A stretch of 22,928 bases of DNA from a virus (taxonomy: Duplodnaviria; Heunggongvirae; Uroviricota; Caudoviricetes). Below, piece after piece: positions 3,271 through 16,028 of the stretch. The translations under genes were made by a program, and so were the position numbers. The notes beneath the pieces are model-generated. The model was not told where the DNA came from and did not search any database. It saw only the letters and a list, made by a program, of their open reading frames with translations. Position 1 is the stretch's first letter. Each line of letters begins with the position of its first letter. Where the stretch lies: the IMG/VR virus record IMGVR_UViG_3300045988_024436, positions 1-22,928 of that record. One strand, written 5' to 3'.

Positions 3271-3530
3271 GCCGCTTCCCTCTGCCCATCAATCCGATCC
3301 GCCAGATCCCAGCGGGCGATAATTGCCATTGCCTCGCGCCGGTAGGAATCCATCAGTTCTTCGAACTCAGGGCTGTCTTTAGCAGCCTCCAGCACTTCCT
3401 GACGAACGCCTTTGCCTGTTACAACGTCGAAAGTTGAGGACAGTTGATGAAGTCGGATGCTCTCAATCAGTTCAACTTGTCGGTCATATAGCTGTTCTGA
3501 CAGGCGGTAGTCCTTGTCGAATGCCAGCAT
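3267..3530 (-). CDS. hypothetical early protein
   Basis: 87-aa track ORF; its stop overlaps the exonuclease start (ATGA at 3267-3270); no recognisable domain. Confidence 0.45.
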   Translation of the reverse strand: MLAFDKDYRLSEQLYDRQVELIESIRLHQLSSTFDVVTGKGVRQEVLEAAKDSPEFEELMDSYRREAMAIIARWDLADRIDGQREAA

Positions 3531-3570
3531 GATTTTTTTGAAGATTTTTTCTGCTGATTAACGTTCATTA

Positions 3571-3723
3571 TCAGCCCTCCCATATCTCGTTATCGTTGGC
3601 TACATCGCGAGCTTCTTTGCTGACGAAAGCCCACTTAATGCCTTCCTGTAAGGTGCGGAACTTCCAGCTCATGAATCCGCATGCAGTAACGCAGTACAAA
3701 CCGTTGATGATTTTCCACTGCAT
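3571..3723 (-). CDS. small hypothetical protein (50 aa), first ORF after the leftward promoter
   Basis: Not in track (below 60 aa). ATG at 3721-3723 with GAGG 9 nt upstream; translates MQWKIINGLYCVTACGFMSWKFRTLQEGIKWAFVSKEARDVANDNEIWEG. Confidence 0.3.
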   Translation of the reverse strand: MQWKIINGLYCVTACGFMSWKFRTLQEGIKWAFVSKEARDVANDNEIWEG

Positions 3724-3830
3724 AACTTGTTACCTCGGTCTGTTACCGTTTAGGTAATAATTATGCTTATTTGGTTTGGTGTCAATAGATATGAGTTAAA
3801 AAAATTACCCGTAAGGTAATCTATCTGGCA
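3724..3830 (-). promoter_or_regulatory. leftward early promoter/operator region (PL-like)
   Basis: Minus-strand TTGACA (plus 3780-3785), 17-bp spacer, AATTAT (plus 3757-3762). TTACC-N5-GGTAA palindromes at 3743-3757 (abutting the -10) and 3805-3819 (upstream of the -35). Confidence 0.45.
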
Positions 3831-3854
3831 ATAAAAAAGCCGCCATGAGGCGGC
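3831..3854 (-). terminator. rho-independent terminator after the repressor gene
   Basis: Stem GCCGCC, loop ATGA, stem GGCGGC (3839-3854), followed on the minus strand by TTTTTTAT (plus 3831-3838). Confidence 0.6.
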
Positions 3855-3876
3855 TTACTTACTGAAAAATATAGTT

Positions 3877-4461
3877 TTATTGTTTGCTTTTTTCGTTCTG
3901 GTTGATGACAAATTCAATGTAACTTTCGATCTTTGCTTTCTCGGTTTCGGGTAACAATGCGTAGCGTGAGCGGTCATAGTTGATAGTCGCAGGGTCGTGC
4001 GGGTGAATCAGTAGTTCATATCCGTGACGCCCGAATGCGGATGCAACATTCTCCAGGGTGGAAATGGAAACGCTGACCTCATTGTTTAACAGGCGGCTGA
4101 TTGTCACCTGGGCGACGCCGGATGCGCGGTGAAGTTTTCCCTGTGTTGAAAGGTCGCGGCTTTCGCTCATCCAGCGTTCCAGGTTGTGAGCCGCCAGCTG
4201 ACCTATATCGCTCGGGCCGACAGGCTGAAAACCCTCCTGAGAAAGCGAACGATCAATATCAAGCCAGTTACGGGGTTTATTGGCGGCAGCTTCAATTTTT
4301 CGTGCAACCTGGTCGCCGATAACCTTCTTGCCAAGAGCCCAGCGGTTTACCAGATTTGCCTGAGTTCCAAGTTTTTCTGCCATCCGCGTCTGAACACCAT
4401 TGAATTCACGGTCGATCAAGTCGTTGAGATTTTGCCTGCGGACGTCCTGGATACTTTTCAT
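3877..4461 (-). CDS. immunity repressor with two XRE-type HTH domains and no LexA-like S24 peptidase domain
   Basis: 194 aa; HTH 1 around QTRMAEKLGTQANLVNRWALGKK, HTH 2 around RASGVAQVTISRLLNNEVSVSISTLENVASAFG; divergent from a Cro-like gene; no Ala-Gly/Ser...Lys autocleavage module visible. Confidence 0.7.
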   Translation of the reverse strand: MKSIQDVRRQNLNDLIDREFNGVQTRMAEKLGTQANLVNRWALGKKVIGDQVARKIEAAANKPRNWLDIDRSLSQEGFQPVGPSDIGQLAAHNLERWMSESRDLSTQGKLHRASGVAQVTISRLLNNEVSVSISTLENVASAFGRHGYELLIHPHDPATINYDRSRYALLPETEKAKIESYIEFVINQNEKSKQ

Positions 4462-4615
4462 TTTCTGGAAAATCGCCTCATATATGAATCAGTAGATGAT
4501 TCAATTTAAAGCAATATTACCCAACAGGTAAATGCACCTCATAGGTAACTATCCTTGATTTTTGTTACCTTATGGGTGAATATTTATTATCTGAAATAAA
4601 TATCAGGCAATAGCT
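4462..4615. promoter_or_regulatory. divergent immunity switch region with three operator-like sites
   Basis: Sites TTACCcaacaGGTAA 4517-4531, GCACCtcataGGTAA 4534-4548, TTACCttatgGGTGA 4565-4579. Candidate rightward promoter TTGATT 4555-4560, 17-bp spacer, GAATAT 4578-4583. Confidence 0.55.
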
Positions 4616-4846
4616 ATGAGCGATAACGGACATTTCGATTTCAAAAAGCACTGGCTTGCACTTACTCCGGATGAGCGTGAAGCCTTCGCACAGGAAGCCG
4701 GAACGACTAGTCACTATATCCAGACTCACTTAACAGGCAAGCGCAAAATGCCAGGTAAGGTATTGATGAATGGGCTTTTTAAAGCCTGTAAAACAAGACA
4801 ATGGCTGCGCTCAAAAGCAGAACTGGCATACTTCTTCTACTCATGA
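4616..4846 (+). CDS. Cro-like small HTH regulator
   Basis: 76 aa, divergent from the repressor; REAFAQEAGTTSHYIQTHLTGKRKMP reads as an HTH; followed by a terminator. Confidence 0.55.
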   Translation: MSDNGHFDFKKHWLALTPDEREAFAQEAGTTSHYIQTHLTGKRKMPGKVLMNGLFKACKTRQWLRSKAELAYFFYS

Positions 4847-4868
4847 TATCCAGCTACAACCCTCTGTA

Positions 4869-4890
4869 GACCGCCACCCGGCGGTCTTTT
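4869..4890 (+). terminator. rho-independent terminator after the cro-like gene (tR1-like position)
   Basis: GACCGCC-ACCC-GGCGGTC followed by TTTT. Confidence 0.6.
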
Positions 4891-4994
4891 CATATCTATT
4901 CGTACCTCAAAGGTAATAAAAAACCAAATCTGGTTGATCAAATTTTCCAATTGTGCAAAATAGCCAATATCAATAACAAAAAGGGGCGGAAAAA

Positions 4995-5207
4995 TTGAAG
5001 ATAGTAACCAGAATGGAGGCCGCAAAAGCCGGGTTAAATCGCTATTTCACAGGAAAGCGGTGCCGTCACGGCCATCTCTCTGAAAGGTATGTTCTGAACG
5101 GAACATGTGTTGAATGTGCAATGAATAGCGCCAACCGCCATCGTAATGAATTTGCTTGTGCACTAAAGAGTGCAAGAGGGGAAACCTATGGCAAGCAGCT
5201 GGATTAA
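4995..5207 (+). CDS. small zinc-ribbon protein (CII-position gene, function unknown)
   Basis: 70 aa from TTG at 4995 (AAGGGG about 9 nt upstream), or 64 aa from ATG at 5013; CRHGH...CVEC metal-binding pattern; 3' end overlaps the replication gene start. Confidence 0.4.
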   Translation: MKIVTRMEAAKAGLNRYFTGKRCRHGHLSERYVLNGTCVECAMNSANRHRNEFACALKSARGETYGKQLD

Positions 5208-6018
5208 GGTTGAAGTTATCACTCCTGATAAACCTGAAATTTTTCAGATAGCAGAAATTCTGGGTATTGATCCAGATGCTGTTCTTGGAAAGCTGGTTCG
5301 TATATGGGCATGGGCTGACCAGCAAACAATAGACGGTAACGCTGGCAGCGTTACAAAAGGAGTACTTGATAGACTCGCTTTTATTACAGGATTTGCTGAC
5401 GCCCTCATTAGCGTCGGATGGCTTGCTTATCATGACGGCAAACTAATTCTTCCAAACTTTGAGCGACATAATGGAGAATCATCGAAAAAACGTGCACTTA
5501 CGAATAGAAGAGTGGCAGAGCATCGAAAACGAGTAACGCAAAAAGTAACGCCAACAGCGTTACAAAAGGAGTTACCAGAGGAAGAGGAAGAGGAAGATAT
5601 ATATAAAACCCCACACATAGCGCACGTGCGCGAGGGTGCTCCGACCAGTGAAGCGAACAGTACGCCGTTGCAGGTGGCAGAACCTGAATTTCTGGATGGC
5701 CTGAGTGAACCCATCGGGAAATTTCCGATGACAGATGGCTGGCTACCGTCGCCAGATTTTCGGCGGCGTGCTGCGCTGTGGGGAACGGCCCTGCCGGAAC
5801 CGGAATTTACACCTGCTGAACTTGCTGCATTCCGGGATTACTGGATGGCTGAGGGCAAAGTGTTCACGCAGGTTCAGTGGGAACAAAAATTCGCCAGGCA
5901 CGTAAATCATATCAGGGGAAAATCAAAAAATGCCGGGAAAAGCGATGAGCTTGACTGGAATAACACTGACTGGATAGAAGGGGTGTGGGATGAAATCAAC
6001 TCCAGAACTTCTCAATGA
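5188..6018 (+). CDS. replication initiation protein with DnaT-like C-terminal domain (O-like position)
   Basis: ATG at 5188 with SD AGAGGGG. C-terminus FPMTDGWLPSPDFRRRAALWGTALPEPEFTPAELAAFRDYWMAEGKVFTQVQWEQKFARHV matches recalled E. coli DnaT. Acidic linker EEEEEED. Confidence 0.7.
   Translation: MASSWIKVEVITPDKPEIFQIAEILGIDPDAVLGKLVRIWAWADQQTIDGNAGSVTKGVLDRLAFITGFADALISVGWLAYHDGKLILPNFERHNGESSKKRALTNRRVAEHRKRVTQKVTPTALQKELPEEEEEEDIYKTPHIAHVREGAPTSEANSTPLQVAEPEFLDGLSEPIGKFPMTDGWLPSPDFRRRAALWGTALPEPEFTPAELAAFRDYWMAEGKVFTQVQWEQKFARHVNHIRGKSKNAGKSDELDWNNTDWIEGVWDEINSRTSQ
5330..5612 (+). other. putative replication origin inside the initiator gene (iteron-like palindromes plus AT-rich tract)
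   Basis: GTAACGC-N5-GCGTTAC at 5336-5354 and 5545-5563, extra GTAACGC at 5533-5539, GTTAC at 5571-5575. 18-bp direct repeat CAGCGTTACAAAAGGAGT at 5346-5363 and 5555-5572. (GAGGAA)3 at 5578-5595, then ATATATATAAAA. Confidence 0.4.
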
Positions 6019-6791: not shown

Positions 6792-6883
6792 ACGTATCGA
6801 TAATTACCTTAGAGGTAATAAAATATTCTAAAATCTATTGATTTCGTGTCTTATGTGGTTTTTAATTACCTAAGGGGTAAATC
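6792..6883 (+). promoter_or_regulatory. promoter with flanking operator-like palindromes upstream of the nuclease gene
   Basis: TTGATT 6838-6843, 17-bp spacer, TTTAAT 6861-6866. TTACCttagaGGTAA at 6804-6818; TTACCtaaggGGTAA at 6866-6880 overlaps the -10 and the SD of the 6884 gene. Confidence 0.5.
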
Positions 6884-7231
6884 ATGAGAAAACAGATGCA
6901 GGCTCTTGGTCGACTCAAAACAGGCCAGATGAACAAAACAGAATCTGCGTATTGCCAGCACCTTGAGCAGCGTAAACGTGCAGGGGAAATCGCTTGGTAT
7001 CGATTCGAGGGTATCAAGCTGCGGTTAGCTGACAACACGTTCTATACGCCAGATTTCGCTGTGATGCTCGCCACCGGCGAGATGGAACTGCACGAAGTGA
7101 AAGGGGGATTCTGGACCGACGACGCCAGGGTGAAAACCAAAGTCGCCGCAGATCAGTATCCGTTCCGAATCATCGGGGTAACGGTTAAACCAAAGAAAGC
7201 TGGTGGTGGCTGGAACATCGAAGAGTTCTGA
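6884..7231 (+). CDS. putative PD-(D/E)XK nuclease (VRR-NUC-like)
   Basis: 115 aa; D...ELHEVKGG arrangement (YTPDFAVMLATGEMELHEVKGG) suggests a D-x(n)-E-x-K active site. Confidence 0.45.
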   Translation: MRKQMQALGRLKTGQMNKTESAYCQHLEQRKRAGEIAWYRFEGIKLRLADNTFYTPDFAVMLATGEMELHEVKGGFWTDDARVKTKVAADQYPFRIIGVTVKPKKAGGGWNIEEF

Positions 7232-7335
7232 ATCGACGATCTTTTTAGTTATCAATGTAATCAATAAGTTATGTGGATAAGCGAGGGTAAAGATGGAAAG
7301 TAATATCAAAAGGGTTAGTTGCCGCCGGGCATGAG

Positions 7336-7755
7336 ATGGCTTCGGAACTGAAAGCTGAATGTGGTGCCGTTGATATGCGCAGTGTGGCAAAGCTGATCAG
7401 CGATTTGGCAACGCAACTGGAAGTGCAACTGGTGCGTGCTAATGCGCTGGCGGCGGAGAATGCGGCGCTGAAACACGCAATGGCCGTAACTCTTGAGCAT
7501 GTGTCGGTCACGGATGCAGGGCAGGCTGGTGTTGCTGCAATGATTATCAACGATGCCCTATACCACAGCGAAACTCCGGTCACCGACGCTCTCCTGGCTG
7601 AAGTACGTGCGCAGGCGTTTAATGACCTTTGCTCGGTGTTCGTTAAGGACGCGACGGTTGCCGGGCTGGACGATGGCGACATCGTTACGGTGAAAGAAGC
7701 GACGGACGCCCTGCTGCATTGTGCGGAGCAGCTTCGCAAAGGAGGCAACCAGTGA
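7336..7755 (+). CDS. hypothetical protein
   Basis: 139-aa track ORF on the coding strand of the operon; weak SD; the minus-strand ORF 7269-7925 is treated as antisense. Confidence 0.4.
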   Translation: MASELKAECGAVDMRSVAKLISDLATQLEVQLVRANALAAENAALKHAMAVTLEHVSVTDAGQAGVAAMIINDALYHSETPVTDALLAEVRAQAFNDLCSVFVKDATVAGLDDGDIVTVKEATDALLHCAEQLRKGGNQ

Positions 7756-8306
7756 GCAAGATTGATTATCAAAAGCTTCGTGAAATCGCTGAAAAAACAA
7801 AAATTGCTGGTGAAGCACCTGTAATGCCTTTCGATCAGCGAATTAATGCGCTTAACGATTTTATGAAGCACTTTTCGCCAGATATCGCGCTGGCATTGTT
7901 GGATGAACGGGAAAGAAACCTGCAATACATCAAAAGCCGCGATCAGGAGAACGAGGATATTGCGCTAACGGTAGGGAAGCTGCGTGTTGAGCTGGAAGGC
8001 AAAGACAGCAAAATAGCCAATCTTACCGCCGAACGCGATGCTCTTCGTGAAGGTGAGATGGGCGACGCTAGGCATAGCAACACACGGGCCGCAGCTGATA
8101 TCTACTTCCAACTGGTCGAGGAGTGCGAAATTCCTGCTGGCGGTTCTCTGGTCGAGTACGTTGACGATATGCGCGAGAAGCTGGAAGCCGCAGAGAAGCG
8201 CATTGCAGAACTGGAAGCACGGGAAATAAAACCAGCCAAAGGTGAAGTTCTTGTCGTTGTTCTGGTTTTACTGGTTGCGGAAAAAGCGCCATCGCCGGGG
8301 AAATAG
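7752..8306 (+). CDS. coiled-coil protein, Ead/Ea22-like
   Basis: GTG at 7752 with SD AAAGGAGG 6 nt upstream, overlapping the upstream stop (GTGA); SKIDYQKLREIAEK... then heptad-rich LEAAEKRIAELEAR; hydrophobic C-terminus VLVVVLVLLVA. Confidence 0.45.
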   Translation: MSKIDYQKLREIAEKTKIAGEAPVMPFDQRINALNDFMKHFSPDIALALLDERERNLQYIKSRDQENEDIALTVGKLRVELEGKDSKIANLTAERDALREGEMGDARHSNTRAAADIYFQLVEECEIPAGGSLVEYVDDMREKLEAAEKRIAELEAREIKPAKGEVLVVVLVLLVAEKAPSPGK

Positions 8307-8314
8307 AAATCGCG

Positions 8315-8503
8315 ATGAAGGCTATTGGTGTACCGGTTAAGTGGACTAATGGCGATGCAGAAAAGCGCATGACTGGCGCTGACTGGCTGACAGCGATTGA
8401 GATGTACAAACCAACTGTGCGCATCGTGGAAGTTAATGTGCCATGCGTCGCTGGCATTTGCATCAAAGGAGACGCAGGAGAGCAAAACGATGAAAAACCG
8501 TAA
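8315..8503 (+). CDS. hypothetical small protein
   Basis: 62 aa; on the operon strand; weak SD. Confidence 0.35.
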   Translation: MKAIGVPVKWTNGDAEKRMTGADWLTAIEMYKPTVRIVEVNVPCVAGICIKGDAGEQNDEKP

Positions 8504-8678
8504 AGCAAAGATTCTGTTAGTTCGTAGAAACGCTCCTGGCGTCTGGCAGTGGGTGAGACTCAGCAACCGACGGATGGGGTTGATGAAATATTACGGGATG
8601 ATGGATTGTGGTTTTTGCAAAAAGCCCAGCGCGGCGCAAAACCGCTGGAAAAACCACTTGCGTACTAAAGGAGAGTGA
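8490..8678 (+). CDS. hypothetical small basic protein
   Basis: 62 aa from ATG at 8490 with GGAG 9 nt upstream; MKNRKAKILLVRRNAPGVWQW...; C-terminal part of track ORF 8397-8678. Confidence 0.35.
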   Translation: MKNRKAKILLVRRNAPGVWQWVRLSNRRMGLMKYYGMMDCGFCKKPSAAQNRWKNHLRTKGE

Positions 8679-8679
8679 T

Positions 8680-8889
8680 ATGGCTATCGCTGCAAGTTAC
8701 ACCATGCATCTCTATTGTGACTGCCGTCAGTGCACGGAAGGTGTATATCCAGTGCCAGACTTCGGTGAGTATATAGGTACGTCATGGGCTGGCTGTGCAA
8801 AAGAGGCGCGCAAGGATGGCTGGCGAATAAGCAAAGACAAAACGCGTGCTTTTGCGCCCGGGCATAAAGTTTTGAGGATTAACAAATGA
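8680..8889 (+). CDS. small Cys-rich protein
   Basis: 69 aa from ATG at 8680 with SD AAGGAGAG; CDCRQC cluster; contains FGEYI, shared with the 10384 gene. Confidence 0.4.
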   Translation: MAIAASYTMHLYCDCRQCTEGVYPVPDFGEYIGTSWAGCAKEARKDGWRISKDKTRAFAPGHKVLRINK

Positions 8890-9833
8890 CCACTATTACC
8901 AGAGAACAAGCTCTGAAAATTATTGAGGCAGCCGATGAGGTTATTAGTGCGCTGGCCGGAACTAACGAGGATGTTCACCCTGGTAGCGATAACATGCTAC
9001 GCCTGTGGGATGACCTGAATGACCGTTACGCGCCGCCGGAAATTGTGCGTGAACTGGCACGGATTGTGCTGGCATCGCTGGAAGCCGAGCCTGTTCTGTA
9101 TCAGTCCTGCACTCGCCCCACCTGGAATAGCGGTGTTCCGTGGACGGAATGGAAAGAACGAAGTCGTGAGTGCTACGAAGACGATTTGCGCTTTACAGAC
9201 ACGCCTGACCATGCCGGTTGGATATACAAATGTCGAAAACTATATACCACTCCGCCAGCGCCGATAGCGTTAGAGGCCATTGAAAACGCAATTGAATACA
9301 TCCGCAGTATCGCTTTTCACATCGATGAAGACGATTACCACGGCAAACATATTGCGTATTTCATGCAGCAAGCATTGGCCTGGCTGGAAGGGCATTCATG
9401 CAGCGACGACAGACTGGGTAAAGCCGAGAATCAACCAGTACGCGGCAACCAGGCTGCCGAATCCAATCGCGATAATGAGTGGACTGGCAATCCTGATATT
9501 GATAACGCCATCATCATGCTCGACCGCATAGATACGCTGGAAAATTGCGATGATGACCGTATTGAGGCTGTTAAGGCTGTTTTGCGTAGACTGGCTGGCA
9601 ACTATCCGGTAATTCCGGATGGTTGGATAAGCTGTAGTGAGCGAATGCCTGAGAACATTCCCGGAAGTTGTAAAGAGTATCTGGTGTTTGATGGGCTTAA
9701 TAATAAAGTTCATCACGATTACTGGGTTGTCCCTGATGGAGACAGTGCGCCAGTTGCGTCGTTCTGGAATCATTACGGGGCACATGTAACTCACTGGATG
9801 CCTCTACCGGAACCGCCGCAGGAGGTTAATTGA
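8886..9833 (+). CDS. DUF551-like phage protein
   Basis: 315 aa; C-terminal GWISCSERMPE...VTHWMPLPEPPQ resembles the DUF551 signature as recalled; SD GAGGA before the ATG. Confidence 0.55.
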   Translation: MTTITREQALKIIEAADEVISALAGTNEDVHPGSDNMLRLWDDLNDRYAPPEIVRELARIVLASLEAEPVLYQSCTRPTWNSGVPWTEWKERSRECYEDDLRFTDTPDHAGWIYKCRKLYTTPPAPIALEAIENAIEYIRSIAFHIDEDDYHGKHIAYFMQQALAWLEGHSCSDDRLGKAENQPVRGNQAAESNRDNEWTGNPDIDNAIIMLDRIDTLENCDDDRIEAVKAVLRRLAGNYPVIPDGWISCSERMPENIPGSCKEYLVFDGLNNKVHHDYWVVPDGDSAPVASFWNHYGAHVTHWMPLPEPPQEVN

Positions 9834-10117
9834 TGGTCTCCTTCGCGAAATATACGATTATTGACTGGATAGCATTCATTCAGGTTTTGCTCATCTGGTT
9901 TTATATGGCTTACAGGAGTGGACAGTGGATTGTCAGTGTAGCCTGTAGCAATGGATGGCGTTGGTGGAACCGAAAGAATAAAAAAGCGCTGGCCTTGGCT
10001 TCGTTTTACGAAGCATTCAATCTTAACAGTCTTCAGCCTGGTTCTGTCGTTGTAGTCACCACTCAAAGCGGCATGACGATACAAATTCACAAGCCAAAGG
10101 AGGAAGGTCGTGGCTAA
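9833..10117 (+). CDS. small membrane protein
   Basis: ATG at 9833 overlapping the upstream TGA; SD AGGAGG 7 nt upstream; hydrophobic N-terminal segment IIDWIAFIQVLLIWFYMAY. Confidence 0.4.
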   Translation: MVSFAKYTIIDWIAFIQVLLIWFYMAYRSGQWIVSVACSNGWRWWNRKNKKALALASFYEAFNLNSLQPGSVVVVTTQSGMTIQIHKPKEEGRG

Positions 10118-10391
10118 CCTGCAACTTGCCGTTAAAGGTGAATACTTCGATGCCATGATTCGCGGAGAGAAAACGGAAGAGTATCGCCTGTGTAATGACT
10201 ACTGGAATAAGCGAATTATGTTCCGCGAGTATGACCGCCTGATTATCACAAAGGGATATCCGAAGCGCGACGATTCCAGCCGCAGAATTGACGTCCCGTA
10301 TGACGGATATGAAATCAAGACAATCACACATCCGCACTTCGGCGATAAACCGGTAAAGGTGTTCGCTATAAAGGTGAATATTGATGGCTAA
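10110..10391 (+). CDS. ASCH-like domain protein
   Basis: GTG start with SD AAGGAGGAAGG; EYFDAMIRGEKTEEYRL fits the ASCH G-x-K-T-x-E-x-R motif. Confidence 0.45.
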   Translation: MANLQLAVKGEYFDAMIRGEKTEEYRLCNDYWNKRIMFREYDRLIITKGYPKRDDSSRRIDVPYDGYEIKTITHPHFGDKPVKVFAIKVNIDG

Positions 10392-10722
10392 ATCAGCAGC
10401 AGAGCGCAAAGCCGCTCAGAGAGCCAGACAAGCTGCATCTGGTGTGCGTAAGCTGGAAATTGTGCTTGATGCTCAGGAAATTGAAATGCTGGAGCGTAAC
10501 TGTGCCACGCGTCGCCCCGGGCGTGCGCCTTACGAATTTGGTGAGTATATAGCGTTACTGATCCGCCAGGATGATGCACGCGTGCACGGGCGTATAAAAT
10601 CGATCAGCAGAAAACGTTGCGGTAAGTGCGGCGAGAGAGTTCCTGTGAATTCATGCCCGTGTGATGGTGACTCGCAATGCTGGGTGACTAAAGGCTGGCA
10701 TGAAACGAAATTAATAGTGTGA
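10384..10722 (+). CDS. Cys-rich protein, possible zinc-finger regulator immediately upstream of the late operon
   Basis: ATG at 10384 with SD AAGGTG; C-terminal CGKCGERVPVNSCPCDGDSQC; stop TGA overlaps the palindrome GTGACATGTCAC. Confidence 0.4.
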   Translation: MAKSAAERKAAQRARQAASGVRKLEIVLDAQEIEMLERNCATRRPGRAPYEFGEYIALLIRQDDARVHGRIKSISRKRCGKCGERVPVNSCPCDGDSQCWVTKGWHETKLIV

Positions 10723-10771
10723 CATGTCACGAGTAGATTATGCATGATGAATTTGATGGGGTTTGAATACT

Positions 10772-10797
10772 GCCGCCAACTATGGCGGCTTTATTTT
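10772..10797 (+). terminator. rho-independent terminator between accessory genes and terminase
   Basis: GCCGCC-AACTAT-GGCGGC followed by TTTATTTT. Confidence 0.55.
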
Positions 10798-10803
10798 GCA
10801 TGG

Positions 10804-10841
10804 TACTATTACCACAACGGTAACTATTACCACGGTGGTTA
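10804..10841 (+). promoter_or_regulatory. operator-like palindromes and direct repeat upstream of the terminase small subunit
   Basis: TTACCacaacGGTAA at 10809-10823 and TTACCacggtGGTTA at 10827-10841; direct repeat ACTATTACCAC at 10806-10816 and 10824-10834. Confidence 0.4.
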
Positions 10842-11296
10842 TGATGCCTGCTGAACCTAAAGCCTATAAACGCAAATCAACGCAATTTAAGCCACTAACA
10901 GCAATGCAGGAGGCTTATTGCCAGTCATACATCAAAACGCCTGAAAACCAGACTCAGGCAGCGATTAACGCAGGATTCTCCCCAAATACAGCGGCAGTTA
11001 AAGCCAGTGTCATGATGCGCGATGAACGCATTCAAAAACGGATTGCCGAGTTGATGGAGGAGCGCAACAAACGAATGCGCGTCAGTGCTGATTACGTTCT
11101 CATGCGCTTGGTGGAGATCGACCAGATGGACGTGATCGACATCCTCAACGACGATGGTAGCCTTAAGCCAATCCGAGAGTGGCCGAAAATCTGGCGCACT
11201 ACGCTTAGCGGCTTTGATCTGTCATCGACCATCATGAACATGAACGAGGATTCGATAGAGACAATCATCAAAAAATTAAATGGCCTGACAAGGTGA
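10841..11296 (+). CDS. terminase small subunit, probably C-terminally truncated by a frame change
   Basis: Track ORF starts at 10763 but its first 26 codons are the terminator and operator DNA, so ATG at 10841 or 10844 is preferred. A protein-like frame ([20 protein letters not shown]...[10 protein letters not shown]) continues from 11290 to a TGA at 11431-11433 that overlaps the GTG of the large subunit. Confidence 0.55.
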
Positions 11297-11429
11297 AGAA
11301 CCTCGAACTGATTGGTAAGCACGTCGACGTCAACGCATTCAAAGAACGCCTGGATGTTAATGTGAATGTGACAATTGCTGATCGCATAGCGGCAGCCAGG
11401 AAGAGACTGAAGAACGTCAGTGGCAATCA

Positions 11430-12908
11430 GTGACAGATACAGCGTTATCTCCTGAAGAGCAGTTAATCGAGATATTGCAGGGTTCACTCACGATCCGCTT
11501 GGCTATGCCCTCTATGGGTTCCCCGTGGGGGGGAAGGAGGGTACTGAACTGGCGACATGCCACCGGTCCACGTCAGTGGCAGGCCGATGCGTTCCGAGAG
11601 ATACGTGATCACCTGCAGAATCCAGAGACGCGATATCAGCCGCTTATGCTGGCACGTGCTTCTGGTCACGGTATTGGTAAATCCGCATTCATCTCAATGC
11701 TGATCAACTGGGGCATGTCCACTTGCGAGGATTGTAAGGTCGTGGTGACCGCCAACACCGACAACCAGCTACGAACGAAGACCTGGCCGGAAATTATCAA
11801 GTGGTCAAACCTTGCTATCACGAAAGACTGGTTTACCTGTACCGCTACCGCGATGTACAGCAATGACCCTGGGCACGACAAGCGGTGGCGAGCTGACGCA
11901 ATCCCCTGGTCTGAGCACAACACTGAGGCATTCGCCGGACTACACAACGAGCGTAAACGCATCATCGTGGTATTTGATGAAGCGTCGAACATTGCGGATC
12001 TGGTGTGGGAAGTTGCCGAGGGTGCGCTAACGGACGAAGACACTGAGATTATCTGGGTGGCTTTCGGAAACCCTACACGTAACACCGGGCGTTTCCGTGA
12101 ATGTTTCCGCAAATACAAACACCGCTGGAAAACTGCGCAGATTGACAGCAGGACGGTGGAAGGCACCAACAAACAGCAGTTGCAGAAATGGGTTGATGAC
12201 TACGGGGAAGATAGCGACTTCGTTAAAATCCGTGTGCGTGGCATATTCCCTGATGCATCTGAATTGCAGTTTATCCCTACCGGTCTTACTGACGAGGCAA
12301 TGAAACGGGTGGTAACTGCTGCGCAGGTGGCACATGCTCCGGTGATAATCGGCGTTGACCCGGCATACTCCGGCGTTGATGACGCTGTGATATACCTGCG
12401 GCAGGGGCTACACAGTAAGGTGCTGTGGACTGGCAACAAGACTACCGACGATCTGATTATGGCGAAGCGTATCGCTGACTTTGAAGACCAGTATCAGGCT
12501 GACGCGGTGTTCATCGACTTCGGTTACGGAACCGGTTTGAAGTCAATCGGTGACGGCTGGGGTCGTACATGGCAACTTGTTCCGTTCGGTGGCGCGTCTA
12601 CTGACCAGCAGATGCTCAACAAGCGTGGGGAGATGTTCAACTCATGCAAGACATGGCTGAGGCTGGGCGGCATGCTTGATGACCAGGAAACAGCGGACGA
12701 CCTGTCGGCGGCAGAGTACAAAGTTCGAGTGGACGGTAAAATCGTTATCGAACCGAAGGAAGATATCAAGGAGCGGCTTGGGCGTTCTCCTGGTAAAGGC
12801 GATGCGCTACTGCTGACGTTTGCGTTCCCGGTGTCAAAGCGCCTGCGAATTCCCGGGCAGCAGAACCAGCAAGGCAAGGCCATTACAGATTACGATCCCT
12901 ATGCTTAA
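11430..12908 (+). CDS. terminase large subunit
   Basis: 492 aa; ATPase-like N-terminal half and nuclease-like C-terminal half ([11 protein letters not shown]...DAV); GTG start overlaps the upstream stop. Confidence 0.8.
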
Positions 12909-12958
12909 TCCGTTAGCGGGGATAATGACGGAGATATCCTCTGGTGAGGATAAAACAA

Positions 12959-12978
12959 AGCCAGCTCATCGGCTGGCT
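12959..12978. terminator. hairpin terminator after terminase, stronger on the minus strand
   Basis: AGCCAGC-TCATCG-GCTGGCT; T-rich on the minus side (TTTGTTTTAT) and TGTTTGT on the plus side. Confidence 0.5.
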
Positions 12979-13184
12979 GTTTGTGACATGTCACGGTGTT
13001 AGAAGGTTATTTTATCGAATGCGGCGTTGATTGCCTTGGCGTCCTGCTCAGCACCAACCACATCAAGTAAAGATCTTTTACTAAGCACTTCAGCCAGGCA
13101 TTGTAACTTCATTGTTGTATAAGGTTTTTCGCGCATTGTAATTCATCATCACTTTTTTCTTTGGCGTATACAGCGCGAGAAATA

Positions 13185-13427
13185 TCAAACTACATTGCCT
13201 TTTTCCATTTCAGTTTTCTGCGCTGAAATCCAGTCATGGCAAGTAACTCCTATTCCATGGTCATCGCTAAGCGTTAACCCGGCAAGTCGCTCACCTGGAA
13301 TTGCTTCACAAAGCATTTCATTTCCTGCAAAAACACCATAAAAAATTGAGTCATCACCCTGAACAATGCGTACATATTTGCACGGCCATTCATTTAGATA
13401 TTTAGCTAGCATGTCGGCTGTTTTCAT
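13185..13427 (-). CDS. hypothetical 80-aa protein in minus-strand insert between terminase and head genes
   Basis: ATG at 13425-13427 with SD AAGGTGAG; opposite strand to the flanking late genes; lies between two minus-strand terminators. Confidence 0.4.
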   Translation of the reverse strand: MKTADMLAKYLNEWPCKYVRIVQGDDSIFYGVFAGNEMLCEAIPGERLAGLTLSDDHGIGVTCHDWISAQKTEMEKGNVV

Positions 13428-13436
13428 GATCTCACC

Positions 13437-13459
13437 TTAAAAAAATGCCCGGCGAACCG
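13437..13459 (-). terminator. rho-independent terminator (minus strand) immediately upstream of the 80-aa ORF
   Basis: Minus strand reads GCCCGG-TTCG-CCGGGC then A TTTTTTT, ending 2 nt before the SD. Confidence 0.6.
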
Positions 13460-13496
13460 GGCGAACTGGAAGCAATGAGTTATGCCTTCCGTGGCT

Positions 13497-13512
13497 GTAC
13501 TGGTTTACAGCA
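13497..13512. promoter_or_regulatory. LexA-box-like palindrome CTGTA-N6-TACAG
   Basis: CTGTACTGGTTTACAG fits the CTGT-N8-ACAG SOS-box core with CTGTA/TACAG arms; centre less AT-rich than canonical boxes. Confidence 0.3.
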
Positions 13513-13582: not shown

Positions 13583-13626
13583 AAGCCCCTGGAACTTCTG
13601 GCATCACGGTCCTTAGGCGTGATTCT

Positions 13627-13702
13627 GGCGTGGCATGCAGGATTCGAACCTGCGACCAACCGCTTAGAAGGCGGTTGCTCTGTCCAGCTGAGCTAATGCC
13701 AC
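13627..13702 (-). tRNA. tRNA-Arg (anticodon UCU)
   Basis: Reverse complement GTGGCATTAGCTCAGCTGGACAGAGCAACCGCCTTCTAAGCGGTTGGTCGCAGGTTCGAATCCTGCATGCCACGCCA folds as a cloverleaf: 7-bp acceptor stem, anticodon loop CTTCTAA, T-loop TTCGAAT, encoded CCA. Close to E. coli argU as recalled. Confidence 0.9.
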
Positions 13703-14129
13703 AACGCTGAGAGCACTTAGCCTGTTAAGGCGCCACACTTTGTCGCGGCTCCATAAATGCTCTCATCGTTGTACCCTCGTCTCTTCCGAGGCGTCACACC
13801 GAATCGCCGGGATGGTGAATCCCCGTGCGCGGAATAAAACCGCTCGACTTGCACATTCCGGCTACCTGGTTCGTTTGCCCGAGCAAGGGAGGGTGCCCCT
13901 TAAACGTATCCAGACCGCTATCGGCGCATGTGCCATACGCCGTACTGCTCAAAATAAAAGCTCACTCCACCTGTTCAATTTAACGACAAGCCAGTCAGGT
14001 TAGTAACCGGAATGAACTCTTTGGTTACCTGAAAGGTAATAATTTGTGCGTTAAATGTCAACTGCCTACGATAAATAAATCATATGTGGTTAAATTGGTA
14101 ATAATTTAATTGCGTACGGAGTCATTGAT

Positions 14130-14350: not shown

Positions 14351-16028
14351 ATGGCGGAAACAACTAAAGAGCGATTGAACAAACAGTTCGCACAACTTGA
14401 AAGCGAGCGTCAGTCGTTCGAGCCGCACTGGCGCGAGTTGAGTGATTACATCAACCCGCGTGGTTCCCGCTTTCTGACTTCTGAGGTTAACCGTAACGAT
14501 CGACGCAATACACGCATTATTGATTCGACCGGGACTATGGCGGCGCGCACTCTCGCCAGCGGCATGATGTCAGGCATCACAGCCCCGCGCGTCCGTGGTT
14601 TCGCCTGGCTAGCCAGATCCTGAAATGATGGATTATGGCCCTGTTAAGTTGTGGCTTGAGGCGGTGCAGAACCGCATGAACGATATGTTCAATAAGTCGA
14701 ATCTCTATCAGTCGCTGCCGCAGTTATACGGAAGCCTCGGCACATACAGCACTGGTGCAATGGCAGTGCTGGAGGATGACGAGGACATCATTCGCACAAT
14801 GCCATTCCCGATAGGCAGTTACTACCTGGCTAACTCACCTCGTGGCAGTGTGGACACCTGTTTTCGCAAGTTCTCTATGACTGTTCGTCAGCTTGTTCAG
14901 GAGTTCGGGCTAAATAACGTCAGCGAATCCGTAAAAAGCATGTGGGAAAGCGGAACCTACGAGAAGTGGATTGAAGTGATGCATTCGGTTTACCCGAACA
15001 TTGACCGCGATACATCGAAGCTGGATAGCAAGAACAAGCCATTCAAATCGGTTTATTACGAGGTTGGTGGCGATAACGACAAGTTGTTGCGTGAGTCCGG
15101 ATTCGATGAGTTTCCAATTATGGCTCCGCGCTGGGAAGTTAACGGCGAAGATGTTTATGGATCATCATGCCCGGGTATGCTGGCGCTTGGACCTGTTAAG
15201 GCATTGCAGCTTCTCCAGAAGCGCAAGTCGCAGTTGATTGATAAAGCCACCAATCCGCCGATGGTTGCTCCGACTTCCCTCAAGAATCAGCGTGCCTCCC
15301 TTCTTCCTGGCGACATCACGTATATCGATCAGATTACTGGTCAGGATGGTTTCAGGCCTGCTTATCTGGTTAACCCCAGTACAGCAGATTTGGTGGCAGA
15401 CATTCAGGACACCCGTCAAATCATTAACAGCGCCTACTTTGTCGATCTGTTCATGATGTTGCAGAACATCAATACCCGCTCGATGCCTGTTGAAGCGGTG
15501 ATCGAAATGAAAGAAGAAAAACTTCTGATGTTGGGGCCGGTTCTGGAGCGTCTGAACGACGAATGTCTTAATCCTCTCATTGACCGCGCTTTCTCGATGA
15601 TGGTGCGTAAAAACATGCTGCCGCCACCGCCTGACGCGATGGAAGGTATGCCCCTGAAGGTCGAATACATTTCCGTCATGGCTCAGGCGCAGAAGTCTAT
15701 CGGCCTGTCCAGTCTGGCGTCTACGGTCAACTTCATTGGTCAACTTGCGCAAGCGAAACCAGAAGCTCTCGACAAACTCAACGTTGATCAGGCGATCGAT
15801 GCATTCGCTGATATGTCCGGAGTGTCTCCAACCGTCATTGTTCCGCAGGAACAGGTTGAGCAGGCTCGCCAGCAACGGGCACAGCAACAACAGCAGCAAC
15901 AAATGATGGCGATGGGGATGGCGGCGGCACAGGGTGCCAAGACGCTAAGCGAAGCTAAAACTTCGGATCCGAGTGTTTTGTCAGCTATGGCGAATGCAGT
16001 TAGTGGTCAGGGTGGGCAATCACAATGA
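14351..16028 (+). pseudogene. portal (head-to-tail connector) protein, apparently split by two nearby frame changes (or sequencing errors)
   Basis: ORFs 14351-14623 (90 aa) and 14625-16028 (467 aa) are in different frames. The third frame across the junction encodes SPARPWFRLA (14581-14610), which resembles the P-x3-W-x-RL stretch of T7 gp8; a C4 run lies at 14583-14586. Poly-Q near the C-terminus. Confidence 0.65.

Follow-up and report, generated by a model that had tools for sequence, protein, structure and literature searches.

A probable SPC32H-like lysogeny switch and its palindromic operator in an epsilon15/phiV10-type Escherichia coli prophage

Two genes, one encoding a 194-aa repressor (Rep) and the other a 76-aa Cro-like protein, diverge from each other in the stretch of viral DNA analysed here (22,928 nucleotides, referred to as the window), with copies of the palindrome TTACC-N5-GGTAA between and near them. 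The locus raises the questions of whether these palindromes are the operators of Rep, how far they extend beyond the switch itself, and how a repressor predicted to carry no LexA-like peptidase could be inactivated. Very probably, the region is the switch that governs lysogeny in an epsilon15/phiV10-type (Uetakevirus) E. coli prophage, operating like the Rep-Ant-LexA system of Salmonella phage SPC32H. The original prediction, which described a temperate-phage immunity switch, is borne out by homology, architecture, motif statistics and site synteny; these were observed directly, as was the antirepressor gene ant with its LexA box in near-identical phages. The switch is real but ordinary: its repressor, palindromic operators and switching-off route are already known from close relatives.

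The element and its repressor

The prophage adjoins guaA and has the Uetakevirus gene order. At the DNA level, phiV10, TL-2011b and ZX5 match the region with 97-98% identity, and identity to approximately 545 E. coli genomes is as high as 99.7%. The segment at 7000-13500 is variable, and its best match among complete E. coli genomes has 81% coverage and 94.5% identity. The recT, terS and portal genes are frameshifted in this prophage copy, which may therefore be non-inducible altogether.

Rep was predicted to have two helix-turn-helix (HTH) domains and no LexA-like S24 domain, with structure prediction proposed as a check. In Pfam, residues 106-147 match HTH_3 (E 1.2e-9) and residues 21-61 give a weak, sub-threshold match of HTH type (YdaS), while no peptidase family is matched at E up to 0.1. 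In the AlphaFold model, residues 4-59 and 83-151 form helical bundles and residues 172-193 a helix; Foldseek ranks 5d50 and 5d4z first and XRE-type HTH proteins next, with no peptidase fold among the matches. Both modules are thus seen and the peptidase is absent, as predicted. The architecture is not new, since a note in the phiV10 GenBank record already gives ‘two helix-turn-helix motifs’.

Homology is full-length. A phmmer search aligns Rep residues 1-190 to residues 2-197 of 5d50_A, the ‘Repressor’ of a Rep-Ant complex, with E 3.5e-42, and the alignment spans all three modules. Identity to SPC32H Rep is 42.7% over 99% of the query (tblastn), divided by module into 54% for the DNA-binding domain, which is the best conserved, 34% for the middle and only 48% for the Ant-binding tail. 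Rep shares 99.5% identity with both phiV10 p40 and ZX5 ORF21; overexpression of the latter abolished free phage and lowered endolysin and holin transcripts by >99.9% (PMC9782041). The recognition helix NLVNRW (residues 36-41) is invariant in five aligned phage repressors. Relatives with NLVSRW, NLISRW or NVISRW at this position keep TTACC-N5-GGTAA, and comparison of helix with operator found no covariation, only further conservation. The motif YD...Y..LP..EK.KI of the Ant-binding tail is also invariant and is present in Rep of the window.

The palindrome and its positions

Five palindromes had been predicted around the switch, and all five were confirmed in the sequence (three perfect, one with one mismatch and one with two). 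Arms of 5 bp are invisible to the inverted-repeat finder. We counted the motif across the window and took expected counts from dinucleotide-preserving shuffles of it. Perfect matches number 7 (0.00 expected), those with ≤1 mismatch 10 (0.41 expected) and those with ≤2 mismatches 21 (5.86 expected). The 10 sites with ≤1 mismatch, together with the one at 4534, all fall in the non-coding part of the window, which makes up approximately 11.5% of it. The remaining ten 2-mismatch matches are all within genes and look like noise. Six sites (4902, 6804, 6866, 10809, 10827 and 14025) lie beyond the coordinates first considered; the motif is predicted to be a genome-wide operator, and the immunity region is just one of its locations. 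The palindromes are almost certainly the operators of the 194-aa Rep, as had been proposed. The features are collected in Table 1.

Table 1. Predicted operators, promoters, terminators and regulatory genes in the window
Feature	Sequence	Position	Strand	Remarks
Operator OL-proximal	TTACCGTTTAGGTAA	3743-3757		Perfect; shares one base with PL -10 and covers start-site region
Promoter PL	TTGACA 3785-3780, 17 nt, AATTAT 3762-3757	3785-3757	minus	10/12 consensus matches (promoter scan)
Operator OL-distal	TTACCCGTAAGGTAA	3805-3819		Perfect; 19 nt upstream of PL -35, 62 bp from 3743
Intrinsic terminator		3837-3856	minus	Directly past rep gene; parts rep transcript from PL
Rep, 194 aa		3877-4461	minus	N-terminal HTH DNA-binding domain ~1-70; HTH_3-like dimerisation module ~89-150; tetramerisation/Ant-binding tail ~151-194
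Operator O1	TTACCCAACAGGTAA	4517-4531		Perfect; closest to rep start
Operator O2	GCACCTCATAGGTAA	4534-4548		2 mismatches; 17 bp from O1
Promoter PR	TTGATT 4555-4560, 17-nt spacer 4561-4577, GAATAT 4578-4583	4555-4583	plus	Read from sequence
Operator O3	TTACCTTATGGGTGA	4565-4579		1 mismatch; within PR spacer and first two -10 bases
Cro-like gene, 76 aa		4616-4846	plus	First gene of PR; PHROG 35 ‘transcriptional repressor’, E 5.6e-13
Terminator		4868-4887		After Cro-like gene
Operator-like site	GTACCTCAAAGGTAA	4902-4916		1 mismatch; upstream of the following promoter-like element
Weak promoter-like element	TTGATC-17-AAAATA	4934-4962		Read from sequence; precedes 70-aa ORF and replication genes
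Operator		6804-6818		Perfect; upstream half of 62-bp pair past replication genes
Promoter-like element	TTGATT 6838-6843, 17 nt, TTTAAT 6861-6866	6838-6866		PL-like geometry; our own reading, under scan threshold
Operator		6866-6880		Perfect; downstream half of 62-bp pair; shares one base with promoter-like element
Operator		10809-10823		Perfect; between terminator 10772-10789 and small-terminase start 10844
Operator-like site		10827-10841		1 mismatch; 18 bp from 10809; ends 2 nt before terS ATG
Operator		14025-14039		Perfect; upstream of portal/virion operon

PL serves the leftward genes (a 50-aa ORF, an 87-aa ORF, exonuclease and recT). Its two sites flank it as originally described, one at the -10 and the other upstream of the -35, and the pair is syntenic in ZX5, SPC32H, epsilon15 and Tyrion at 62 bp and in BUCT711 at 63 bp. 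The phiV10 record annotates a terminator at the position equivalent to the one past rep. Between the divergent genes, O1 overlaps the region where the presumed rep promoter must lie, and its counterparts are syntenic in all relatives examined. SPC32H and epsilon15 have a perfect counterpart of O2 at equal spacing. For O3, direct reading of the sequence agrees with the predicted overlap of the PR spacer and -10, and the arrangement TTGATT-17-RAWTAT with O3 in the spacer recurs in SPC32H, L011 and L012; the consensus promoter scan favours an overlapping alternative for PR, TTGTTA-17-TATTAT at 4562-4590. The 4902 site has syntenic 1-mismatch counterparts in ZX5, Tyrion and BUCT711.

The operator had in part been recorded before. 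In the epsilon15 record (NC_004775.2), seven protein_bind features are labelled ‘repressor’, all ATTACC-N5-GGTAAT. The proposed role of the palindrome is supported but was already annotated; these features may be bioinformatic annotations. They lie before terS (12-27), before the portal operon (2931-2947), at PL, past the replication gene, and in the gap that separates gp19, located where ant would be, from the tail fibre gene. In the window, their equivalents by position are 3743/3805, 6804/6866, 10809 and 14025. Our scan also finds three sites between genes 38 and 39, at 33341, 33358 and 33388, which are absent from the features listed in that record; the gp38 repressor is 43% identical to Rep of the window. 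The epsilon15 genome is said to have been described by Kropinski et al. in 2007. In the phiV10 and ZX5 records, and in the ZX5 paper (PMC9782041), the operators are undescribed. A full-text literature search with the half-site strings plus repressor and prophage returned only noise; the LF82 prophage Gally paper was rejected as a precedent, its system being of C2/Mnt type, with epsilon15 and SPC32H unmentioned and the strings falling in primers.

SPC32H resembles the window most fully. Its gene order is the same, and three TTACC-N5-GGTAA sites, spaced 17 and 30-31 bp apart, stand between its rep and cro-like genes. Pairs 62 bp apart lie at PL and past the replication genes, and terS and the portal operon are each preceded by a single site; its Rep likewise has three modules, equal length and no peptidase domain. 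It differs in its host (Salmonella rather than E. coli), in an extra third site at PL (33528) and in a perfect O2 where that of the window is degenerate (2 mismatches), while Rep of the window is only 43% identical overall and ant lies outside the window. The likeness to lambda CI, P22 C2 and LexA-type systems is in layout: divergent repressor and cro genes, three operators between them and a second set at PL, and palindromes with half-sites one helical turn apart. In contrast to CI and LexA, Rep lacks the S24 peptidase domain (Ser-Lys dyad) and RecA-stimulated autocleavage is presumably absent; in contrast to lambda-type phages, the operators spread across all operons, late ones included. Comparison with the ‘stoperators’ of mycobacteriophage L5 was rejected. 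Those are many asymmetric sites within transcribed regions, in a single orientation to transcription, whereas the window has 10-11 symmetric sites in 23 kb, all intergenic and at operon 5′ ends.

The route of inactivation

The SPC32H Rep/Ant/LexA switch was reportedly worked out by Kim & Ryu in 2013 and Kim et al. in 2016, and its structures are PDB 5D4Z and 5D50. Secondary accounts describe how it operates: SPC32H Rep has the domain order DBD (the N-terminal HTH, which binds DNA), MDD (the dimerisation domain), CAD, of which CAD tetramerises and also binds Ant (PMC9986798); Rep sits on palindromic sites as a tetramer that tetrameric Ant breaks (PMC9638917); and Ant is produced once LexA self-cleaves (PMC7380047). 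A dimeric HTH binder, as originally proposed for the window, therefore does not fit the characterised homologue. The mechanism of inactivation, which had been called open, very probably is not, because a full-length homologue of Rep is dismantled by LexA-controlled Ant, and phages 98-99% identical to the prophage carry an Ant homologue and its LexA box.

The ant gene (85 aa) of phiV10-type phages is divergent from the tailspike gene, in a position beyond the window, which ends in virion genes. The homologues carried by ZX5 and by the prophage of E. coli A33 are 88% identical to SPC32H Ant. Just upstream of ant is a perfect LexA box (CTGT-N8-ACAG), CTGTatatttatACAG in ZX5 and CTGTataaacatACAG in SPC32H. 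Among E. coli genomes, 529 carry the ant segment and 545 the rep segment, so that ant occurs in approximately 97% as many as rep. Inside the window, LexA boxes with ≤1 mismatch are at chance level (7 observed, 8.1 expected), as are the two perfect CTGT-N8-ACAG matches (13495 and 18035), which have no candidate gene beside them.

In the ZX5 annotation the Ant homologue (2089-2346) is labelled ‘hypothetical’. The ‘anti-repressor’ of the ZX5 authors is a different gene encoding a Bro-N protein, which lowered prophage titre and the repressor transcript (PMC9782041); their choice probably overlooked the SPC32H-type Ant, whose gene is upstream of the Bro-N gene on the same strand. Inactivation of a non-cleavable repressor by a LexA-controlled antirepressor is likewise described for coliphage 186 Tum and the Gifsy/Fels-2 antirepressors in a review (PMC7380047). 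Those systems differ in having unrelated proteins and another repressor architecture. The SPC32H authors are said to have found Ant structurally distinct from Tum and from the Gifsy/Fels-2 antirepressors.

Mechanism, alternatives and the genus

We propose that the N-terminal HTH of Rep, with helix NLVNRW, would read the 17-bp palindrome ATTACC-N5-GGTAAT, and that the second HTH-like module and the C-terminal tail would assemble a tetramer, which could therefore hold two palindromes simultaneously. Rep at O3, within the PR spacer, would block the cro-like/early-right transcript; the 62-bp pair at PL and the identically built pair 6804/6866 would clamp their respective promoters; and the sites at 4902, 10809/10827 and 14025 would silence the replication, terminase and virion operons. 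On induction, DNA damage would lead to LexA cleavage and transcription of ant; Ant would then bind the C-terminal domain of Rep, so that the tetramer disassembles and the DNA is released. We infer that Rep binds these particular sites in this pairing geometry, and that ant is retained in this prophage copy.

The palindromes may also be shared, with the Cro-like protein binding the sites of Rep, in the manner of lambda Cro and CI, and some of them, such as the weak O2 and the 4902 site, being mainly its own. This is possible but doubtful: the protein is encoded by the first gene of PR and matches a repressor PHROG, and three sites of graded quality between two genes form the classic layout for differential occupancy, but it has no match in Pfam, HTH families included, and such sharing would supplement the Rep model rather than replace it. 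We consider it unlikely that the 10809/10827 and 14025 sites, and perhaps 4902, are roadblocks to read-through or loop anchors instead of promoter occluders. The consensus scan found no good sigma-70 promoter beside 10809 or 14025, the former comes right after a terminator and its partner at 10827 stops just short of the terS start codon, and the homologous Rep, tetrameric according to PMC9638917, is therefore able to bridge two sites. The sites are nevertheless symmetric and at operon 5′ ends, as ordinary operators are; weak or activator-dependent late promoters would evade a consensus scan; and a conserved TATGTGG/TATAAGG element that follows the 14025-type and tailspike sites could be a -10.

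As for Rep itself, it is very unlikely that both HTH modules read DNA, the second recognising another motif. The significant HTH_3 match of that module, and the invariance of T120 and R123 in its would-be recognition helix, speak for a second reader. Against it, the module is described as the dimerisation domain in the solved homologue (PMC9986798); it is the least conserved part of Rep (34-45% identity in distant relatives) while the operator is invariant; and the sole other conserved palindrome, GTGACATGTCAC, stands at operon ends and is absent from the switch. Inactivation of Rep by some mechanism other than autocleavage or a known antirepressor is more improbable still. Rep has no S24 domain, the window has no ant, and the published ZX5 ‘anti-repressor’ is another gene; yet Rep is homologous, over its whole length, to a repressor whose crystal structure includes the antirepressor, it retains the invariant tail motif, and the near-identical phages carry the 88%-identical Ant and its LexA box, at nearly the frequency of rep in E. 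coli genomes. We retain the Rep-Ant-LexA model.

The motif is found at equivalent places in SPC32H, epsilon15, ZX5, Tyrion, Klebsiella phage BUCT711 and three contigs (from Serratia, E. coli and a sequencing run), although the repressors of these relatives are only 43-78% identical to that of the window (99.5% for ZX5 ORF21). The operator is invariant across phages of Escherichia, Salmonella, Enterobacter, Klebsiella and Serratia, while Rep has diverged to 43% identity; plausibly, this is because a dozen sites or more would have to change in concert for specificity to shift. Also strictly conserved is the geometry of the 62-bp pair: an operator, 19 nt, the -35, 17 nt and a -10 that has one base in common with the second operator.

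From these patterns we tentatively suggest, with rather less than even confidence, that Rep directly represses every transcription unit of the genome through one operator sequence, that the whole genus is a single immunity group, and that the 62-bp pairs are promoter-clamping micro-loops, each held by one trans-paired tetramer. The units would be the early left, early right, replication, nin-like, terminase, virion and tailspike operons. This suggestion is absent from the secondary literature consulted, and the primary papers may well cover it.

As a discovery the switch matters little, because a member of its repressor family has been crystallised with the antirepressor, the record of the type phage already marks the operator, and a protein 99.5% identical to Rep has been assayed as a repressor. 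Its use is in annotation and prediction. The eleven operator sites of the window can now be annotated with confidence, and the 85-aa ‘hypothetical protein’ beside the tailspike gene of phiV10-type phages, which occurs in approximately 10% of complete E. coli genomes, can receive the name Ant. An operator that does not vary across the genus predicts cross-immunity between Uetakeviruses of E. coli and Salmonella, which would be relevant to phiV10-based reporter phages and to phage typing.

Identity of the prophage and its repressor

Region 3400-5300 of the window shares 97-98% identity with Escherichia phages phiV10, TL-2011b, ZX5 and others. Among 5426 complete E. coli genomes, 545 carry prophages that match it at up to 99.7% identity. 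The counterpart in E. coli A33 sits immediately after guaA and encodes, in order: integrase, methylase, PerC, AlpA, RecT, YqaJ exonuclease, two small ORFs and an HTH protein; a divergent small ORF, DnaT-like and lambda-P-like replication genes, nin-like genes and terminase; and tRNA-Arg, portal, capsid and internal virion proteins. Genes are arranged in this way in the genus Uetakevirus, the epsilon15-like podoviruses. The window's tRNA-Arg gene (anticodon TCT; 13626-13702, minus strand) falls between the terminase and portal operons, and is annotated also in A33 and Salmonella phage SPC32H. Relative to A33 and ZX5, recT (~1675-1693), terS (~11270) and the portal gene (~14590-14613) are each split over two frames; the window copy is either a defective prophage or one with assembly indel errors. 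The repressor gene (rep), the cro-like gene, the replication genes, terL and the capsid gene are intact.

The 194-aa repressor, Rep, has a Pfam HTH_3 domain at residues 106-147 (E 1.2e-9), a weak HTH-type (YdaS) match at residues 21-61 and no Pfam match to a peptidase domain. Its AlphaFold model (mean pLDDT 77.6) shows helical bundles at 4-59 and 83-151 and a long C-terminal helix; top Foldseek matches are 5d50 and 5d4z, with XRE-type HTH proteins next. The original prediction of two HTH-type modules and no peptidase domain is thus upheld, and the GenBank note for the same protein in phiV10 already states 'two helix-turn-helix motifs'. Sequence search of the PDB matched 5D50 ('Repressor', E 3.5e-42, residues 1-190) and 5D4Z (residues 89-190), which are respectively the Rep-Ant complex and Rep(92-198) of SPC32H, Ant being the small antirepressor of that phage. 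Identity to SPC32H Rep is 54% in the N-terminal module, the best-conserved part, 34% in the middle and 48% in the tail. All five aligned phage repressors share the helix NLVNRW (36-41), and helix variants with S at position 39 occur with unchanged operator. A tail pattern, I-x-YD-x3-Y-x2-LP-x2-EK-x-KI-x3-I-x-F-x3-QN, is likewise invariant across five phages, consistent with the strong conservation of Ant. Overexpression of the ZX5 repressor, 99.5% identical to Rep, abolished free phage and lowered endolysin and holin transcripts by >99.9% (PMC9782041).

Operator palindromes in the window and in related phages

All five palindromes originally predicted are present in the window, placed over PR and around PL (the rightward and leftward early promoters) as described, judging by coordinates and promoter reading; six further sites were found. 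Perfect matches to TTACC-N5-GGTAA number 7 (0.00 expected), those with up to one mismatch 10 (0.41 expected) and those with up to two 21 (5.86 expected). The non-coding 11.5% of the window holds all 10 sites with up to one mismatch as well as the two-mismatch site O2; the remaining ten two-mismatch matches all lie within genes, the pattern expected of noise. With one flanking base per side the consensus is a 17-bp palindrome, ATTACC-N5-GGTAAT.

Promoters, terminators and operator-like sites in the window
Feature	Position	Strand	Location or basis
Operator-like site	3743-3757		flanks PL
PL	TTGACA-17-AATTAT, 3785-3757	-	promoter scan
Operator-like site	3805-3819		flanks PL
Terminator	3837-3856		between rep and PL
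O1	4517-4531		between rep and cro-like gene
O2	4534-4548		between rep and cro-like gene
O3	4565-4579		between rep and cro-like gene
PR	TTGATT 4555-4560, 17 nt, GAATAT 4578-4583	+	read from sequence
Terminator	4868-4887		3' of cro-like gene
Operator-like site	4902		past cro-like gene's terminator
Operator pair	6804 + 6866		3' of replication genes
Operator sites	10809 + 10827		between a terminator and terS start
Operator site	14025		5' of portal operon

O3 fills the PR spacer, and a promoter scan proposes an alternative, overlapping PR. At PL, the -10 and site 3743 have one base in common, and site 3805 is 19 nt upstream of the -35. The 6804/6866 pair has the 62-bp spacing of 3743/3805 and encloses a putative promoter, discerned by inspection (operator, 19 nt, TTGATT, 17 nt, TTTAAT), whose final -10 base also begins the second operator, a geometry identical to that of PL; its score in the consensus promoter scan was below threshold.

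Whole genomes of SPC32H, epsilon15, ZX5, Enterobacter phage Tyrion and Klebsiella phage BUCT711 were scanned for the motif, and the palindrome occupies the same functional positions in all five, bar exceptions at single loci. The rep/cro-like interval holds two or three sites (the motif scan found no third in BUCT711), spaced 17 and 30-31 bp wherever both neighbours pass the one-mismatch cut-off; O2 is degenerate in phiV10-type genomes. The PL pair is 62 bp apart (63 bp in BUCT711), and the 62-bp pair past the replication genes and single sites 5' of the portal operon and between ant and the tailspike gene are present. One or two sites lie 5' of terS in all four genomes where the region is assessable; the BUCT711 record, which stops within terS, showed none. 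The motif is shared by three contigs that are more distant (Serratia, E. coli and a sequencing-run assembly) and whose repressors are 54-59% identical; all three have two or three rep/cro-like sites, and their pairs are spaced 62 bp in L011 and L012, and 75 and 18 bp in L010. In the epsilon15 record, 'repressor' is the bound moiety of seven protein_bind features, every one ATTACC-N5-GGTAAT. Co-conservation of motif and N-terminal domain, the placement over PR and the epsilon15 annotation lead us to infer that the palindromes are bound by the N-terminal domain of Rep.

A one-mismatch operator-like site, ATTACCYTAAAGGTATA, lies just 5' of the integrase gene in ZX5 (8026), SPC32H (26960), epsilon15 (26882) and Tyrion (28568); expression of int or of the attP region may likewise be affected by Rep. 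A second perfect palindrome, GTGACATGTCAC, occurs at 10719-10730 and 12983-12994 (three matches with up to one mismatch in the window, 0.09 expected). Most relatives carry it at matching operon ends: in SPC32H, epsilon15 and ZX5 it is found past the early-right operon, past terL and past the last virion gene; the early-right copy overlaps the stop codon of a 113-aa PHROG 536 'transcriptional regulator'. By count alone, there are two copies in Tyrion and three in BUCT711. It could be a second regulator's site or part of a termination/antitermination signal. A short element, (C/T)(A/T)TATGTGGTT, has an operator upstream of it and either an operator or a GGTAAT half-site downstream at three places: the 6804/6866 promoter (6851-6860), the portal-operon site (14083-14092) and the ZX5 tailspike site (~2465-2480). 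Its counterpart at the SPC32H tailspike site is TATAAGGTT. The element may serve late promoters as a -10-like sequence.

Antirepressor and proposed mechanism

SPC32H ant encodes 86 aa and is divergent from the tailspike gene. At its position ZX5 (2089-2346) and the A33 prophage (7925-8182 of segment L006) have an 85-aa ORF 88% identical to SPC32H Ant, labelled only 'hypothetical protein' in ZX5 and RefSeq E. coli genomes. A perfect LexA box lies just upstream of ant (CTGTatatttatACAG in ZX5, CTGTataaacatACAG in SPC32H), with a candidate Rep operator between ant and the tailspike gene in both. The ant segment is found in 529 E. coli genomes, against 545 with the rep segment; the locus would fall ~10 kb beyond the window end, and ant is known here from relatives. 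The anti-repressor tested in the ZX5 study is a Bro-N protein (1078-1773), downstream of the Ant homologue on the same strand (PMC9782041).

According to secondary accounts of SPC32H, its Rep has N-terminal DNA-binding, middle dimerisation and C-terminal tetramerising, antirepressor-binding domains (PMC9986798); it occupies palindromic sites as a tetramer (binding by the dimer is weak), and Ant, itself a tetramer, engages two Rep dimers and breaks the Rep tetramer (PMC9638917); Ant production follows LexA self-cleavage (PMC7380047). Building on the observed homology, domain architecture, motif enrichment and synteny, and on ant and its LexA box in relatives, we propose that Rep tetramers would occupy pairs of palindromes. 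O3 would block PR, the 62-bp pairs would clamp PL and the promoter at 6838-6866, and other sites would keep the operons for replication, terminase and virion proteins silent; O1 and O2, adjoining the rep start, probably serve autoregulation. On induction, LexA cleavage would lead to Ant synthesis and tetramer disassembly.

The operators may be used also by the 76-aa Cro-like protein, which matches PHROG 35, and at the late sites bound Rep may act as a roadblock instead of occluding a promoter, the consensus promoter scan having found nothing convincing beside 10809 and 14025. That the second HTH of Rep also reads DNA is unlikely, since the corresponding SPC32H module is described as the dimerisation domain (PMC9986798) and the middle module is only 34% identical to that of SPC32H Rep. 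The original prediction held the inactivation mechanism to be open; an unknown route is very unlikely given the homology of Rep to the 5D50 repressor and the Ant homologue and LexA box in relatives, which favour release by Ant.

The system is already known. Published work covers the repressor family, its structure and its antirepressor; the operator is an annotated feature of the type phage, and tests have been done on a near-identical protein. Two features of modest interest may be unpublished: the operator does not vary across the genus although repressor identity falls to 43%, and the geometry of the 62-bp promoter clamp is conserved.
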